From: Candidatus Moraniibacteriota bacterium | Lineage (GTDB): Bacteria > Patescibacteriota > Minisyncoccia > Moranbacterales > UBA2206 | Reading direction: 5' to 3' | Length of the DNA: 64,000 nt | Assembly (NCBI GenBank): GCA_030645735.1 | Contig: JAUSNP010000005.1 | Coordinates: 72,151 to 136,150 of the forward strand | In this document: piece by piece, positions 2,615 to 42,121 of the stretch | How the letters are laid out: each line of letters opens with the position of its first letter | How positions within the stretch are numbered: the first letter of the stretch is position 1 | Notes under the pieces: generated by a model | Databases searched by the model: none | Told to the model about the DNA's origin: nothing | Seen by the model: the letters and a program-made list of their open reading frames with translations, nothing else | Position numbers and translations under genes: made by a program

Positions 2615-4105
2615 ATGACAAAATATATTCCAGTCATCGGCATGGAAATCCATGTTGAATTGAAGACAAAATCAAAAATGTTTTGCAGTTGCAAGAACGG
2701 CTTGGGCATGGAGACTGAACCGAACGTGAACATTTGCCCAGTGTGTACCGCGCAACCCGGAACATTGCCGGTGGCCAATGAAGAGGCTATCAAATTTGTG
2801 CAGATGGCTGGCTTGGCCTTGAATTGCCAGATTGCAGAAATTTCCAAATTTGATCGCAAGAACTATTTCTATCCAGACATTCCCAAGGGCTATCAGATCT
2901 CACAATATGATCAGCCTTTGTGTGGCTTGGGTCACATAGATATAATAACCAATGACCAAGAAACAATAACCAAAAAAATAGGAATTACACGCATTCACAT
3001 GGAAGAAGACACGGGCAAATTGGTGCATCCAAAAGGCGCCGATCATTCTTTGATTGATTTCAATCGGGCGGGGGTGCCTTTGATGGAGTTGGTGACTGAG
3101 CCGGATATTGAGACGGGTAAAGAAGCAAGATTGTTCTGCCAGAAGTTGCAGCAGATTTTTCGTTATTTGGAAATTTCTGAGGCTGACATGGAAAAAGGTC
3201 ATATGCGTTGCGAGGTGAACATTTCTTTGCACAAAGAAGGTGAAGAAAAATTGAGCGGCACCAAAGCGGAAATCAAGAATCTAAATTCTTTTCGCGTGGT
3301 GGAGCGTGCTGTTGATTATGAAATCAAGCGTCAGACTGAAATTTTGGAAAAAGGTGAAAAGGTCGTGCAGGAAACTATGGGTTGGGATGAAGCACGAGGC
3401 ATCACTGTGTCACAACGCAAGAAGGAATCAGCACATGACTATCGCTATTTCCCAGAGCCGGACATCCCGCCAATGCGATTTGCAACTGATTATGTAGAAA
3501 ATTTGCGCCGTCACTTGCCAGAACTGCCAGACGCCAAAGCGAAAAGATTTGTGGAAGAATATGGTTTGTCACGGGAAAATGTAGAGGTGATCGTGAGTGA
3601 CAAAAGTCTGGCCGAATATTTTGAGCAGGTTGTTTCTGAAATTGATGAAAAGATGCAATGCCAAGAGGTGATAGCTGACAAGGAAAAATGCACCAAGCTG
3701 GCAGCTAACTATATGGTTAGTGAATTGCAAAAGCATTTGGTGAAAAATGGTGAAACAATCGCGGATGTCAAAATCAGCGCAGAAAATTATGCAGAACTTA
3801 TTGGATTTGTGGCAGATGGAAAAATCAATTCCAGCGCGGCGCAAACTGTTTTGGAAGAGATGTATGCGACAGGTGGCGATCCATCACAAATCATTGAAGC
3901 CAAAGGTTTGTTGCAGGTTAGTGACGAAGGAGTTTTGGAAACAGTGGTGGATGAGGTTTTGGCCAAGAACCAAAAATCAGTGGAGGATTTCAAGGCCGGC
4001 AAACAAAACGCTTTGCAGTTTTTGATGGGCCAAGTGATGGCGGCTTCAAAGGGCAAGGCTAATCCAGCGATGGTGATTGAAATGTTGAAGAAAAAATTAG
4101 GCTAG
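2615..4105 (+). CDS. gatB: Asp/Glu-tRNA amidotransferase subunit B
   Basis: MTKYIPVIGMEIHVELKTKSKMFCSC...NVNICPVCTAQPGTLP N-terminus and a C-terminal GatB/YqeY-type domain; 496 aa. Confidence 0.9.
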   Translation: MTKYIPVIGMEIHVELKTKSKMFCSCKNGLGMETEPNVNICPVCTAQPGTLPVANEEAIKFVQMAGLALNCQIAEISKFDRKNYFYPDIPKGYQISQYDQPLCGLGHIDIITNDQETITKKIGITRIHMEEDTGKLVHPKGADHSLIDFNRAGVPLMELVTEPDIETGKEARLFCQKLQQIFRYLEISEADMEKGHMRCEVNISLHKEGEEKLSGTKAEIKNLNSFRVVERAVDYEIKRQTEILEKGEKVVQETMGWDEARGITVSQRKKESAHDYRYFPEPDIPPMRFATDYVENLRRHLPELPDAKAKRFVEEYGLSRENVEVIVSDKSLAEYFEQVVSEIDEKMQCQEVIADKEKCTKLAANYMVSELQKHLVKNGETIADVKISAENYAELIGFVADGKINSSAAQTVLEEMYATGGDPSQIIEAKGLLQVSDEGVLETVVDEVLAKNQKSVEDFKAGKQNALQFLMGQVMAASKGKANPAMVIEMLKKKLG

Positions 4106-4431: not shown

Positions 4432-4587
4432 ATTTACTTTATTGCCAATTTTTTGAAATAGGTGTATATTAGATATAATATGAAAAATTTTGAACTCAAA
4501 AAAGAAGAATTCAAAATAAGTGATTTGAAGAATCGCCCGTAGGGGTGATTTTTTTTGGCTCTTTAACTCAACTAGTGAGGTGGACAT

Positions 4588-39475: not shown

Positions 39476-39567
39476 TTGACGCCTGCGCCCCCACACTAAC
39501 TTTGCATTGGCCTGTGGCCATCACCTTTGGTGATATGCAAGGTTAGTGTGGGGGTGTGGATAACTTT

Positions 39568-39598
39568 TTGACATACAAAATCAAAATGGGTGTATAAT
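39568..39598 (+). promoter_or_regulatory. Sigma70-type promoter (TTGACA-19-TATAAT, TG-extended)
   Basis: ttgaca at 39568 and tgtataat at 39591-39598; preceded by a long imperfect hairpin (39487-39558) and a GTGTGGATAAC box. Confidence 0.45.
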
Positions 39599-39764
39599 AT
39601 AGATAGTAGAAAAGAAAAATAAATACACAATTGAATAGGGGGAAATCAAAGTCGCACTTTGAAAACAAAAGACAGTTTCTTGTGATAGGATATTGTCTTT
39701 TGTTTTTTTACAGAGGTCAAAACAAAAACCAAAACCAACAGCAAAACAACGAGGGAGGAGAAAA

Positions 39765-39929
39765 ATGTCTGGACATAGAATAGACGTAGTTCCCGAGGAA
39801 GTTTTGAGCAGGAAGAAGGCTGCTTTGGCTGCTTTGGAGCATGGCTTAACTGGAGATATCAGTAAAGAAGATCTTCGTAAAGCCAGGCGGGTTTTTATTG
39901 AACAAAATTGTCGTGGTGCGGAACATTGA
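39765..39929 (+). CDS. Hypothetical small protein (54 aa; MSGHRIDVV...)
   Basis: SD GGGAGGAG 6 nt before the ATG; the ORF-track start at 39693 is less likely. Confidence 0.35.
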   Translation: MSGHRIDVVPEEVLSRKKAALAALEHGLTGDISKEDLRKARRVFIEQNCRGAEH

Positions 39930-40116
39930 AATATTCCAGCGCCAAACAGCCCCAGAGAAACTTCATCAACATATTGAATCTAATATGTCGAAATTTCTCC
40001 GGGGCTCTATTTTTTTTGTAATAAATATTTTTAGGCGAAATAAAAAAAGGACCGACGAGCAGAAGTTGCTGTTGTCGATCCTTTCATCTAAAAATGTTCT
40101 TCAACTCGAATTATCC

Positions 40117-40566
40117 TTATCTGAAAATTGGTCTGTCCAGGAAAAAGTTTTTCCCTGGTCTGCCTTTTCTTAGCATGCCTATGCATTGGCCTGGTGCATC
40201 GACGACGATAACCACGAGTTCTTGAATATGGTTTTTACCAATAACCATATACTGGACTCCTGATGCGAGACATTCCCAGAGTTGGCCACTGATGTATACC
40301 CCAGTATTCACGGGGCGGATACCTTCCTGTAACCGAAAGGTCCGGCACTTTAAGTCGTTTTTAGGCAAAAGACCAGCATACATTTCTGGTCGCGTGCCAA
40401 CAAAGTTCAACAAACCAGACCAAGTTAATCGCATGACTCGAGTCATAAGATATCCTTTTGCAAGAGGTTGATAAATAAGAACTACGCCAAATAAAACTGC
40501 CTGCAGTATTGCATCAATTTGCAAAAATGTCAATTTAAAATGCTCACCCTTTGATTTTTTTCTCAA
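40117..40566 (-). CDS. Truncated bacterial sugar transferase (PglC/WbaP-type phosphoglycosyl transferase with the central catalytic region missing); possible pseudogene
   Basis: N-terminal TM followed directly by LNFVGTRPE...IRPVNTG, resembling the C-terminal (M)SxVGPRP...RPGITG motifs, with no KFRTM-type middle region; minus-strand terminator at 40040-40090. Confidence 0.4.
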   Translation of the reverse strand: MRKKSKGEHFKLTFLQIDAILQAVLFGVVLIYQPLAKGYLMTRVMRLTWSGLLNFVGTRPEMYAGLLPKNDLKCRTFRLQEGIRPVNTGVYISGQLWECLASGVQYMVIGKNHIQELVVIVVDAPGQCIGMLRKGRPGKNFFLDRPIFR

Positions 40567-40698
40567 CTCGTGTAAACTAGTTTTAGGCTCAAAGTGTGCC
40601 AGATTAGTGTTGTGTATGGCCTCATCGTCTAGCGGCTAGCCCGCCTCGCATCGACGAGCGGTCGTCTCCGCGAGTCGAGGCGGGGACGCTAAACAATT

Positions 40699-40947
40699 AT
40701 GGCAATATTTATCTATCAATTAATTAGCGAAGATAGAACGAAAACATATATTGGCTTTTCGGATGATTTAGATAGAAGAATTTCTGAACATTTAGCTGGT
40801 AAGGTAAAAACAACAAAGAATTTCGGTGAGTTTAGCCATAGAATTTTAGAGAAAGTTAATGATATCAGGTTAGCTAGAATTGCTGAAAAATATTGGAAAT
40901 CAGCATCTGGCAGGAAAAAATTAAAAGAACAGTTTGATGTAGAATAG
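40699..40947 (+). CDS. GIY-YIG nuclease superfamily small protein
   Basis: IFIYQLISEDRTKTYIGFSDDLDRRISEHLAG: GIY...YIG, conserved Arg and E/H; 82 aa; resembles free-standing UPF0213/Slx1-like GIY-YIG proteins. Confidence 0.7.
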   Translation: MAIFIYQLISEDRTKTYIGFSDDLDRRISEHLAGKVKTTKNFGEFSHRILEKVNDIRLARIAEKYWKSASGRKKLKEQFDVE

Positions 40948-40954
40948 GAAACAT

Positions 40955-41029
40955 GCCGCCATCGTCTAGCCCGGTCAGGACGCCAGGTTCTCATCCTGGA
41001 AATCAGGGGTTCGAATCCCCTTGGCGGTA
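40955..41029 (+). tRNA. tRNA-Glu (anticodon CUC)
   Basis: GCCGCCATCGTCTAGCCCGGTCAGGACGCCAGGTTCTCATCCTGGAAATCAGGGGTTCGAATCCCCTTGGCGGTA: 7-bp acceptor, Glu-type D-arm TCGTCTAG, anticodon loop TTCTCAT, T-loop GGTTCGAATCC. Confidence 0.8.
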
Positions 41030-41053
41030 CTTTTAAAAATAATTTCAAACTTT

Positions 41054-42121
41054 GTGGATGCGAGAAAGGCGTTAGCAGAATTTAAGCAGAAAGTTGATCC
41101 GGAATTGGATGCTTTTTTTGACCGCGTAATTGCAGAAAATGAAAAGGTAGATAGAAACATTACAGATGCCATCAAATATGCCCGCAAGATCACAATGTCA
41201 GGTGGCAAAAGAGCGCGCGCTGCTTTCATTTACTATGGCTATTTGGCGGCTGGTGGAAAAGAAAAAAAGAAAATTATTGAGGCTAGTGTTTGCATTGAAC
41301 TTATTCATTCCTATTTGTTGATGCATGATGATATCATCGATCAAGATGAGTTGCGCCATGGTGTGAAAACCACGCACATTCACTATGCGCAGATGGCAAG
41401 AAGATATTTTAGACACAAGAACGCGGAACATTTTGGGAATTCAATGGCTATCATTATTGGCGATATGCTAAACAGCTTGGGCAATCGGGTTTTGTTTGAA
41501 TCAAAATTTGCCCCAGAATTGATAATCAAAGCTTTGTATCGTATGCAGGACATCGTTTCTTTCACAATTATTGGTGAGACGGAAGATGTGATGATTGAAA
41601 ATCGCGGCCGAGCGACCGAAAAAGAAATCATGCGAATGTATGAAAATAAGACGGCGAAGTACACCATTGAAGGCCCATTGCATTTGGGGGCAATTTTGGC
41701 AGGAGCTGACAACAGGTTTTTGCAAACTTTGAGCGCCTATTCAATCCCAGCTGGCATCGCTTTCCAGATTCAGGATGATATCCTGGGTGTTTTTGGATCA
41801 GTGGGCAAAACTGGCAAGCCAGTTGGTTCAGATGTGCGACAGGGCAAGCAAACTATCTTGGTAGCCAAAGCGCTTGAAAAAGCGGATAAGAAGCAAAAAG
41901 AAATTTTAAAAAGATGCTTGGGCAACAGCAAGCTGACTAAAAAAGACCTAGAAGAATTTAGGCAAGTTATCATAGAAACAGGTTCACTAAAATACGCGCA
42001 AGATTTAGCTAAAAAATTAATTTTGGAAGCTAAAGAAAAAATACAAAAAGTCACTATTGCTGTTGAGGCCAAAGAATTTTTATTAGGCATTGCCGACTAT
42101 ATGCTGAATCGGGAGGTTTAA
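41054..42121 (+). CDS. Polyprenyl diphosphate synthase (trans-isoprenyl diphosphate synthase)
   Basis: First DDxxD LLMHDDIIDQDELRHG and second FQIQDDILG aspartate-rich motifs; start uncertain (the ORF-track TTG start overlaps tRNA-Glu; the GTG at 41054 is used here). Confidence 0.8.
   Translation: MDARKALAEFKQKVDPELDAFFDRVIAENEKVDRNITDAIKYARKITMSGGKRARAAFIYYGYLAAGGKEKKKIIEASVCIELIHSYLLMHDDIIDQDELRHGVKTTHIHYAQMARRYFRHKNAEHFGNSMAIIIGDMLNSLGNRVLFESKFAPELIIKALYRMQDIVSFTIIGETEDVMIENRGRATEKEIMRMYENKTAKYTIEGPLHLGAILAGADNRFLQTLSAYSIPAGIAFQIQDDILGVFGSVGKTGKPVGSDVRQGKQTILVAKALEKADKKQKEILKRCLGNSKLTKKDLEEFRQVIIETGSLKYAQDLAKKLILEAKEKIQKVTIAVEAKEFLLGIADYMLNREV

Follow-up and report, generated by a model that had tools for sequence, protein, structure and literature searches.

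Between the murF gene and a gene for a polyprenyl synthase, a 64,000-nucleotide (nt) stretch of DNA from a Candidatus Moraniibacteriota bacterium (contig JAUSNP010000005.1, positions 72,151 to 136,150; hereafter the window) carries a compact cassette. It is composed of the 5' part of a tRNA-Glu gene that is interrupted by a GC-rich palindrome, an open reading frame (ORF) for an 82-amino-acid (aa) putative GIY-YIG nuclease, and an intact tRNA-Glu gene (Table 1). All features that a preliminary description had named at this locus were found about where it had placed them, and both the GIY-YIG ORF and the intact tRNA-Glu were borne out; the ORF does lie close upstream of the tRNA, the gap being 7 nt instead of the 8 nt given. 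The cassette region has a G+C content of about 60% vs. 41% for the window, the insert is about 340 nt long, and the 82-aa nuclease is its sole ORF. Neither a paralogue of this ORF nor a second copy of the palindrome is present within the 64-kb window.

Table 1. Features of the tRNA-Glu cassette and its immediate flanks in the window.
Feature	Position	Strand	Sequence or basis
Native tRNA-Glu leader, probably with promoter	40550..40617	+	Aligns to the leaders of clean genes in relatives
Remnant of native tRNA-Glu(CTC), nt 1-22 (acceptor 5' strand and D arm to G22)	40618..40639	+	GGCCTCATCGTCTAGCGGCTAG
GC-rich imperfect palindrome (45 nt) between D-arm nt 22 and 23	40640..40684		
Native tRNA-Glu nt 23-27, final retained remnant bases	40685..40689	+	GACGC; alignment with clean tRNAs
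Left junction and short 5' untranslated spacer (9 nt)	40690..40698	+	TAAACAATT
Stand-alone 82-aa GIY-YIG nuclease gene, including stop codon	40699..40947	+	Pfam PF01541
Spacer from ORF stop to tRNA (7 nt)	40948..40954	+	gaaacat
Intact tRNA-Glu(CTC), different isodecoder	40955..41030	+	ARAGORN; Rfam 61.9 bits at 40955-41029

The product of the ORF scores 50.6 bits against the Pfam GIY-YIG model PF01541 (cut-off 22.6; E=2.5e-13; residues 4-74) and has a 100% identical counterpart among the annotated proteins of a metagenome-assembled Candidatus Moranbacteria genome. It retains the catalytic set Y6, Y17, R27, H31, and E63 (the GIY Tyr, the YIG Tyr, the Arg, the His/Tyr, and the metal-binding Glu). 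Y6, Y17, G19, R27, and E63 are invariant in 20 cassette ORFs, in which H31 is at least 90% conserved; H31 is invariant in a 14-sequence set. A C-terminal motif, EKYWKSxxGRKKLK, is conserved and specific to the cassette family. An AlphaFold2 model built with database proteins (pLDDT 89.7) shows the GIY-YIG core fold, with the order strand-strand-helix-strand-helix-helix. The top Foldseek matches of this model were the UPF0213 protein BH0048 (1zg2), the catalytic domain of I-TevI (1mk0; TM 0.63, rmsd 2.8), UvrC, and Slx1, with E-values all above 0.01, an effect of the very small domain size. Among solved structures, UPF0213 proteins (1zg2, E=1e-4; 1ywl) and Slx1 were nearest by sequence, while I-TevI matched more weakly. 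Seg proteins are about 200 aa or more in length and possess DNA-binding domains; no second domain was found in the 82-aa protein, and hence no linker and DNA-binding domain of the I-TevI/Seg type. The NCBIfam model for group I intron endonucleases gave a score of 25.7, under its cut-off of 56, and searches of PHROGs and NCBIfam returned only weak, sub-threshold matches to homing endonucleases. The ratio of non-synonymous to synonymous substitutions (dN/dS) is 0.125 against the related ORF on contig L001 and 0.13-0.23 for other pairs, as compared with 0.07 for a neighboring housekeeping gene. These low values indicate that the protein is maintained by selection, although decayed copies of the ORF occasionally occur (L012, L077, and L080).

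We searched for relatives of this locus with the downstream polyprenyl synthase and compared four contigs, L121, L122, L123, and L124, whose synthases are 85%, 79%, 76%, and 76% identical to that of the window, respectively. In all four of them, a single clean tRNA-Glu(CTC) gene, reading GGCCTCATCGTCTA[A/G]CGG[T/C]TAGGAC...TTGAGGCTA, is positioned directly 5' of the synthase gene, and none possesses the GIY-YIG ORF, the palindrome, or the fragment at the orthologous site. Presence and absence at a fixed site, a trait of homing endonucleases, is thus found among relatives at 76-85% protein identity, not among strains. L124 has the simplest gene order, with genes for a penicillin-binding protein (PBP), MurF, tRNA-Glu, and the synthase in succession; the contigs of the empty sites in L121 and L122 end ~50-220 nt upstream of tRNA-Glu. 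The leader of the window, which holds a conserved TTGATTTTTT...AACTCGTGTAAACTAGTTTTAGGCTCAAA and is likely to contain the promoter, aligns with the same-locus leaders of L121, L123, and L124 and with the two leader copies of L001, and has ~24 additional nt before the tRNA start; the contig of L122 begins only 44 nt before the tRNA, so that its leader is not comparable. A consensus scan found no sigma-70 site on the + strand of the window, and a terminator scan returned nothing useful on that strand.

Nucleotides 1-22 of the fragment are identical to the same-site tRNA-Glu of L123 at 22/22 positions and to that of L001 at 20/22 positions, vs. 13/22 for the adjacent intact tRNA, with which the fragment has one exact 11-mer in common (within-window BLAST E of ~1). 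Since the relatives hold a clean tRNA-Glu at this site and nothing else, the fragment is the remnant of the native gene, and since it equals nt 1-22 of L123 and GACGC equals nt 23-27, the break in the native tRNA-Glu gene came after nt 27. At the left junction, homology to the native sequence ends. The intact tRNA of the window differs from the native one in its acceptor stem (GCCGCCA/TGGCGGT in the window), D loop (AGCCCGGTCAG), and T stem; it is nearest not to the native type, but to cassette-linked tRNAs (L079, 92%; L051, 91%). Homology to the native flank restarts immediately 3' of this tRNA, and the ORF of the window is nearest to that of L001 (82% nucleotide identity). The window is thus a three-part mosaic of a native remnant with an L001-like palindrome, an L001-nearest ORF, and a foreign or relocated tRNA-Glu. 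The ORF and the different tRNA-Glu isodecoder together constitute an insertion/replacement, in which the intact tRNA probably either came in with the ORF or was recombined beside it, and in which it is predicted to functionally replace the disrupted native gene. A simple 22|23 insertion (i.e., between nt 22 and 23) of a cassette carrying nt 1-22 only was rejected, the 3' acceptor strand and the T arm of the tRNA being non-native. We also rejected an integrase-type island or prophage: the insert encodes no recombinase, and such an island would repeat the 3' part of the tRNA, whereas here it is the 5' part that is repeated. The resolvase gene near L010 has no positional relationship to the cassette.

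These comparisons change the preliminary description in several respects. It was right to regard the fragment as a genuine 5' piece of a tRNA-Glu, but this piece extends over 40618-40639 (nt 1-22) instead of 40618-40635 and is not a copy of its neighbor. A simple target duplication is accordingly not what the locus holds: the fragment is the 5' end of the native gene, and the intact tRNA is another isodecoder. A homing-endonuclease-like insertion and a tRNA-Glu pseudogene remnant had been offered as alternatives; the empty site in four relatives, a comparison that the description had proposed, supports the former, and the latter is supported as well, so that both are partly true together.

The layout of the window, in which a ~80-aa GIY-YIG ORF is located between an intact tRNA and a palindrome-interrupted partial copy of a tRNA of the same kind, is a general one. 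About 100 independent contigs, recovered in many studies from the Candidate Phyla Radiation (CPR; Patescibacteria), carry it. Homologues with 83, 62, and 56% identity to the window protein are found in different contexts with a tRNA-Glu 5' fragment bearing a 22|23 hairpin, the ORF, and an intact tRNA-Glu, and two further lineages carry the cassette order in syntenic contexts. When one-genome-per-species bacterial and archaeal genomes (GTDB) were scanned with a DNA pattern spanning the junction between D arm and hairpin, 30 loci were found, 26 of which were true, and nearly all of these were labelled Patescibacteria. A protein-based scan of metagenome contigs, which is unbiased with respect to the hairpin, gave 80 loci; a same-strand tRNA is called by ARAGORN within 150 nt in 66 of them. 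We inspected ten of the 14 loci lacking such a tRNA, and eight show tRNA-derived remnants or palindromes (L059, L080, L082, L099, L102, L109, L112, and L118). In L094, a double hairpin and the 3' remnant of a tRNA lie downstream, the upstream side being lost at the contig end, and L098 has only a match to the right arm of the palindrome upstream, its downstream side being lost in the same way. A search of the full library with the single window protein yielded 423 clusters at 50% identity, and the family representatives among the 150 listed are 47-186 aa long.

This recurrence bears on the notion that the window represents a chance, one-off rearrangement, in which a decaying tRNA pseudogene came to lie beside an unrelated GIY-YIG ORF. 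Such an event would fit the modest resemblance of the fragment to the adjacent tRNA (13/22), given that an 11-mer match is expected about once in the window. An identical architecture in about 100 independent contigs, a fragment that matches the native tRNA of a relative without a mismatch, and a degree of palindrome conservation far beyond neutral expectation (see below) make it extremely improbable.

ORFs that are at least ~50% identical to that of the window are all linked to tRNA-Glu (CTC or TTC), while the more distant subfamilies are linked to Gly-CCC, Gly-TCC/GCC, Arg, Lys, Pro, or Leu tRNAs; in a neighbor-joining tree, the proteins group by tRNA type. The two tRNA-Glu anticodons are interspersed throughout the Glu clade of the protein tree, which suggests that cassettes moved between the two tRNA-Glu genes or that point mutations switched the anticodon. 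L046 and L051 have near-identical cassettes and apparently the same tRNA-Glu (~2254-2329), with a CTC anticodon in one and a TTC anticodon in the other. In relatives, the end of the ORF and the start of the tRNA are separated by 2-47 nt, or else the two overlap by 11-18 nt, and many ORFs read into the downstream tRNA and end at the TAG of D-arm nt 20-22. Cassettes at tRNA-Gly(CCC) have their hairpins in the anticodon loop of the upstream 5' fragment. A mirrored layout, with an intact tRNA (Gly-TCC/GCC, Arg, Lys, Pro, or Leu) followed by the ORF and a 3' remnant of that tRNA, carries in the T loop of the remnant a double hairpin of another sequence type, GCGAGGCTCGC. In L103, L107, L100, L086, and L115, this double GC hairpin reads CCGCCC..GGGCGAGGCTCGC..GCGGC and lies ~250 nt past the ORF start; in the mirrored layout, the C-terminus 'GFPP' of the ORF is encoded by the T-arm copy. 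In a variant listed with L096, L110, and L114, the hairpins are flanked by repeated CCCGCTC right after the 3' end of the tRNA. Three loci (L026, L036, and L040) have the ORF after a clean tRNA, without a hairpin leader. Two mini GIY-YIG ORFs are found on one contig in L058 (beside tRNA-Glu and tRNA-Lys) and in L059 (both beside tRNA-Glu copies); hence, several cassettes can coexist in one genome. In one predicted protein, P0002 (108 aa), the ORF call extended into the hairpin.

With the protein, the empty sites, and the family at hand, one can ask whether the ORF encodes a domesticated, UPF0213-like housekeeping nuclease with a role in repair or RNA processing, which is co-transcribed with tRNA-Glu and preceded by a pseudo-tRNA and a hairpin that serve as a regulatory leader. 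The dN/dS of 0.13-0.23 and the intact active-site residues agree with this, as do the tight, operon-like coupling to the tRNA, the location of the hairpin, which in most tRNA-Glu cassettes precedes the start codon by 10-25 nt, the recurrence of fmt and murF as neighbors over long evolutionary distances, and the UPF0213 proteins of unknown role as the closest solved structures. The gene is missing, however, from the orthologous site in four close relatives; the hairpin occurs in either orientation and at varying positions; mirrored layouts exist next to the hairpin-less L026, L036, and L040; copies have been pseudogenized in L012, L077, and L080; several cassettes sit on different tRNAs of one contig or genome (L058 and L059); and the insertion destroyed the native tRNA gene. 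The preliminary description had regarded conservation of the gene at this position across the lineage, combined with a lack of duplicated tRNA fragments at other sites, as the mark of a housekeeping protein; on both counts we found the opposite, namely empty sites and a recurrent layout with fragments. We regard a housekeeping function as distinctly unlikely.

The palindrome of the window has perfect 9-bp terminal inverted repeats, CCCGCCTCG and CGAGGCGGG (40640-40648 with 40676-40684), which enclose an imperfect inner stem, in place of the 18-bp stem that had been described. Nor does it simply follow the fragment: since the tRNA sequence resumes behind it with GACGC, the hairpin has been inserted into the D arm at 22|23, and GACRC is kept after the palindrome in all examined cassettes of the 22|23 type. 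As DNA, the 45-mer folds with -15.2 kcal/mol on either strand (z = -2.45), and the RNA fold of a 101-nt region has a z of -2.33. Rfam returned no meaningful match to the palindrome, the best being a microRNA family with 25 bits vs. a cut-off of 100. Versions of 31, 38, and 45 nt exist that differ by central insertions; the longer ones enclose nested copies, and tandem arrays of up to four are found (L026). The copy of the window is the reverse complement of that in L004 with one mismatch, and the same 45-mer (0-1 mismatch) is shared by ten or more lineages with ORF identities of only 57-83% and a synonymous divergence that ranges from a dS of 0.85 to saturation. The 45-mer is found in both orientations at sites 22|23 and 12|13, as are the 38- and 31-mers, and further insertion sites are 10|11 and 15|16. 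Mismatches in the terminal stem, counted on the sense strand, comprise 59 G.U and 67 A.C, i.e., there is no excess of G.U. An origin of the hairpin arms from the local tRNA flank by snap-back was rejected, as the arms do not co-vary with nt 23-28. That it occurs in either orientation, at several positions of the D arm, and as nested and tandem copies indicates that the palindrome acts as DNA and not as an orientation-specific RNA. These data point to a DNA-level element, one that is mobile in its own right or that serves as a cis site under strong constraint.

Full-length tRNA-Glu genes with one or more solo palindromes at D-arm position 22|23 and no ORF are present in L001 (5615-5732), L016 (6116-6233), L036 (4292-4420), and L040 (6866-7000); ARAGORN mis-calls such tRNAs as shorter ones that start within the palindrome. 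Nearly all palindrome copies reside in tRNA-derived DNA, the few solitary copies outside it being those of L030 (at 630) and L036 (at 144/3164). In tRNA-Glu debris 'graveyards' (L014 150-520, L026 4330-4480, and L082 3' of the ORF), GC hairpins are also found in anticodon and T loops, and some of the debris copies are without a 5' acceptor strand. L036 contains, in addition, distinct GC-rich palindromic repeats (TGGATTCCCGCCTCCGCGGGAATGACAAG and variants) in AT-rich intergenic DNA at 3300-3700 and 4540-4580, and small palindromic repeats in CPR genomes may be of several kinds.

Archaeal tRNA introns occur at D-arm, anticodon-loop, and T-loop positions. Since hairpins are found at the same three positions in the cassette family, and since the full-length, hairpin-only tRNA-Glu genes (L001 5615-5732, L036b, and L040b) have intact, pairing acceptor stems, the hairpin could be viewed as an RNA-level intervening sequence or intron that is excised from the precursor by an RNase III-type or other endonuclease plus a ligase, or as part of a split tRNA, with the GIY-YIG protein as the homing or processing enzyme. 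CPR rRNA genes, moreover, carry many insertions (PMC11270868). In the window and at most other loci, though, the hairpin is held in a truncated fragment that could never become a tRNA, and the hairpin-bearing copies of L026, L039, and L082 have no 5' acceptor strand. A clean tRNA is close by in most loci (L014, L024, and L059 have none within the examined stretch). Both orientations, the lack of a wobble bias on the sense strand, the nested copies, and the tandem arrays of up to four do not fit an RNA-level role either. Rfam, searched over 39500-42000 with E up to 10, found tRNA only and neither an intron nor a ribozyme, and the features of a group I, group II, or bulge-helix-bulge tRNA intron are lacking, given that the next tRNA is complete and that the ORF fills the whole interval. 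We therefore consider excision at the RNA level highly unlikely; a group I intron in particular was rejected, because there is no space for a ribozyme, no 3' exon, and no Rfam match.

The behavior of the palindrome brings a further explanation to mind, in which a transposable element centered on the palindrome, akin to a miniature inverted-repeat transposable element (MITE) or a mitochondrial GC cluster, is the mobile entity, and the GIY-YIG protein is a structure-recognizing nuclease. ORF-containing cassettes would then be autonomous and solo palindromes non-autonomous, and the tRNA fragments would represent cut-and-repair damage. The palindrome is, in fact, the most conserved part of the module, with identical 45-mers where the ORFs are only 57-83% identical. 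As in MITEs, repetitive extragenic palindromic (REP) sequences, and GC clusters, there are terminal inverted repeats and several near-identical copies in both orientations, here at sites 10|11, 12|13, 15|16, and 22|23, nested, and in tandem. Copies in full-length, ORF-less tRNAs (L001b, L036b, and L040b), the few solitary ones beyond tRNAs (L030 and L036), and the relatedness of the protein in sequence and fold to UPF0213 and to Slx1, a branched-DNA nuclease, are compatible with such an element as well, and mobile GC-rich palindromes are known from AT-rich mitochondrial genomes (PMC4478555). Against it stand the lack of a visible target-site duplication flanking the tRNA-Glu-type copies and the lack of dispersal, there being one copy in the 64-kb window and almost all copies being in tRNA-derived DNA. 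No GIY-YIG protein is known as a transposase of such elements. The non-Glu subfamilies have different hairpins, of the GCGAGGCTCGC type, which argues that the palindrome co-varies with the cassette and is not one free element. On balance, we think a transposable palindrome unlikely.

Exchange among the cassettes is evident from the fragments and their neighboring tRNAs. Nucleotides 1-22 of the fragment are identical to those of the neighboring intact tRNA in 18 of 28 pairs, although the acceptor stems vary among lineages, a sign of recent gene conversion or duplication. The remaining pairs, that of the window among them, combine a fragment and a tRNA from different tRNA-Glu genes, and L002 and L038 have reciprocal combinations of the two. 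In L001, the cassette and two cargo genes are flanked by a 151-nt direct repeat that comprises the leader, nt 1-22, and the start of the palindrome, and the native site is occupied by a full-length tRNA that carries the palindrome.

In our view, the cassette of the window is probably one member of a CPR-wide family of selfish elements that reside in tRNA genes and spread as 'mobile ORFs' or by intron-less homing. In such a cycle, the nuclease would break or nick the DNA of a tRNA-Glu gene, and the damage would be repaired by recombination with a cassette-bearing copy as the template and the conserved tRNA sequence as the homology. In this way, the broken gene would receive a copy of the ORF along with a partial or complete tRNA. 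Insertion would be tolerated because an intact tRNA is brought along or recreated by the cassette, and a piece of the old gene would be left behind. Transcription of the ORF probably starts at the native tRNA promoter, and the downstream tRNA is probably cut off by RNase P. The palindrome, as a cis element that travels with the cassette, would most likely destroy the nuclease target in the leftover copy and break up the direct repeat; alternatively, it may be the site that the nuclease itself recognizes. Both roles, target destruction/repeat splitting and nuclease recognition, rank above any RNA-level role in our assessment, with a hitch-hiking mobile element as the third candidate.

Several observations weigh against a homing cassette. 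The 82-aa protein consists of the catalytic domain alone and is missing the DNA-binding domain that confers specificity on known GIY-YIG homing enzymes; how a bare catalytic domain would choose tRNA-Glu is unexplained, and cleavage and its target are postulates. The intact tRNA next to the ORF still holds the presumed target sequence, so that self-immunity, for which the palindrome alone does not account, is likewise unexplained. This tRNA is, furthermore, non-native over its entire length, including its 3' acceptor strand, which a plain insertion at 22|23 or 27|28 cannot yield; additional recombination steps have to be assumed. We found no strain-level presence and absence with near-identical flanks, empty sites being found only in relatives at 76-85% identity. 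Among fairly divergent cassettes, the same upstream neighbor, fmt or murF, is found repeatedly; long vertical residence would fit this as well as repeated homing. Finally, scans of the viral contigs in IMG/VR with a protein profile and the palindrome pattern found no copy; hence, no vector is known.

A bolder proposal, to which we give limited credence, is that of a two-part mobile system of a kind not previously described, made up of the mini GIY-YIG protein and the palindrome. The nuclease, which has no domain for the purpose, would find its place via the palindrome, either as a DNA structure or as a binding site for a dimer. Since the host tRNA is disabled and a replacement is supplied, loss of the cassette would mean loss of tRNA-Glu and thus create a form of addiction, and each protein subfamily would have co-evolved with its own type of hairpin and its own tRNA species.

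The surroundings of the cassette in the window deserve a brief description. A 1.07-kb stretch from murF to the tRNA-Glu leader (39476-40549) contains no recognizable gene, and a 149-aa ORF on the minus strand (40117-40566) had no match in Pfam, PHROGs, or the related loci compared. This spacer varies among relatives, from almost none in L124 to 1.1 kb with two small ORFs in L123, and is a second variable spot next to the cassette. On the other side, the mechanically called ORF for the polyprenyl synthase (41021-42121, 366 aa) starts at a TTG within the tRNA. Its homologues have 355 aa and fit a GVG-type start at the GTG at 41054; therefore, the synthase gene does not truly overlap the tRNA.

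The closest precedent for the cassette is provided by the mobile ORFs (mORFs) of fungal mitochondria, which carry a replacement gene end while the native end is kept as a remnant, and which are exemplified by the atp6/atp9/cox2/nad3 gene hybrids of Glomus and the atp6 hybrid of Allomyces macrogynus (PMC3630166). In both cases, a free-standing endonuclease ORF (LAGLIDADG, or GIY-YIG in atp9, in the mORFs) is located in a host gene together with a partial replacement copy, the displaced native part adjoins the ORF, presence and absence differ among close relatives, and the inserted part is often of another lineage than the native part. In the window, the ORF sits in a host gene, the intact tRNA is its putative functional replacement, and nt 1-27 are the native part retained. 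Unlike the fungal mORFs, the cassette uses a tRNA gene of a bacterium as its host, encodes a bare catalytic domain of ~80 aa, and has a remnant that is interrupted by a conserved GC-rich palindrome; moreover, the entire tRNA of the window is non-native and not just one end of it. T4 SegB is a GIY-YIG homing enzyme encoded in a tRNA gene cluster (PMC2330249). Like the cassette ORFs, the T4 seg genes are intron-independent GIY-YIG genes beside tRNA genes, thought to spread by cutting the allele that lacks them and by copying repair. They are intergenic, however, do not split their target, and have no palindrome, whereas the window protein has a mere 82 aa and no phage copy of the cassette family was found in the IMG/VR scans.

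With UPF0213/YhbQ proteins and the Slx1 domain, which gave the best sequence and fold matches, the cassette protein shares size class and single-domain build; the EKYWKSxxGRKKLK motif sets it apart, and the function of bacterial UPF0213 proteins is not established. We found no report that links UPF0213 proteins to tRNA genes, tRNA fragments, or palindromes. The GC clusters of yeast mitochondria are mobile, GC-rich palindromic elements of an AT-rich organelle genome (PMC4478555). These clusters, the double-hairpin elements of Allomyces, and the hairpin elements of sponges resemble the palindrome of the cassettes as ~30-80-nt GC-rich hairpin DNA in AT-rich genomes, with a sporadic distribution, a highly conserved sequence, and merged or nested forms; the two-hairpin units of the non-Glu cassettes may be compared with them as well. 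They differ in being scattered over spacers, while the palindromes described here are nearly confined to tRNA-derived DNA by a nuclease gene and lack a target-site duplication. In the same group of organisms as the window, rRNA genes carry insertions, some of which encode GIY-YIG proteins outside recognizable introns (PMC11270868). A GIY-YIG ORF thus resides in a structural-RNA gene without a group I or group II intron in both instances, but the authors judged those in rRNA genes to be sparse and outside a homing context, and their account makes no mention of tRNA genes, partial duplications, or palindromes (PMC11270868). We found no description of GIY-YIG cassettes in tRNA genes in the searchable literature, a scope that leaves out many subscription papers.

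If our interpretation is correct, the tRNA genes of CPR bacteria host a large and apparently undescribed family of very small selfish nuclease cassettes. A homing-type gene would then be able to reside in an essential RNA gene even in the absence of an intron, since an intact copy of the host gene is either brought along or recreated. This raises the question of how a catalytic domain of 80 aa attains specificity for one tRNA, and such proteins could yield compact programmable or structure-guided nucleases. It would also tie a conserved mobile palindrome to a nuclease gene, a connection that has long been only suspected for mitochondrial GC clusters. For the annotation of CPR genomes, it means that tRNAs with palindromes are mis-called, that ORFs are extended into the hairpin (as in P0002), and that assemblies break at cassette loci. 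In these genomes with their minimal sets of tRNAs, the cassettes appear to drive the replacement of tRNA isodecoders and local rearrangement.

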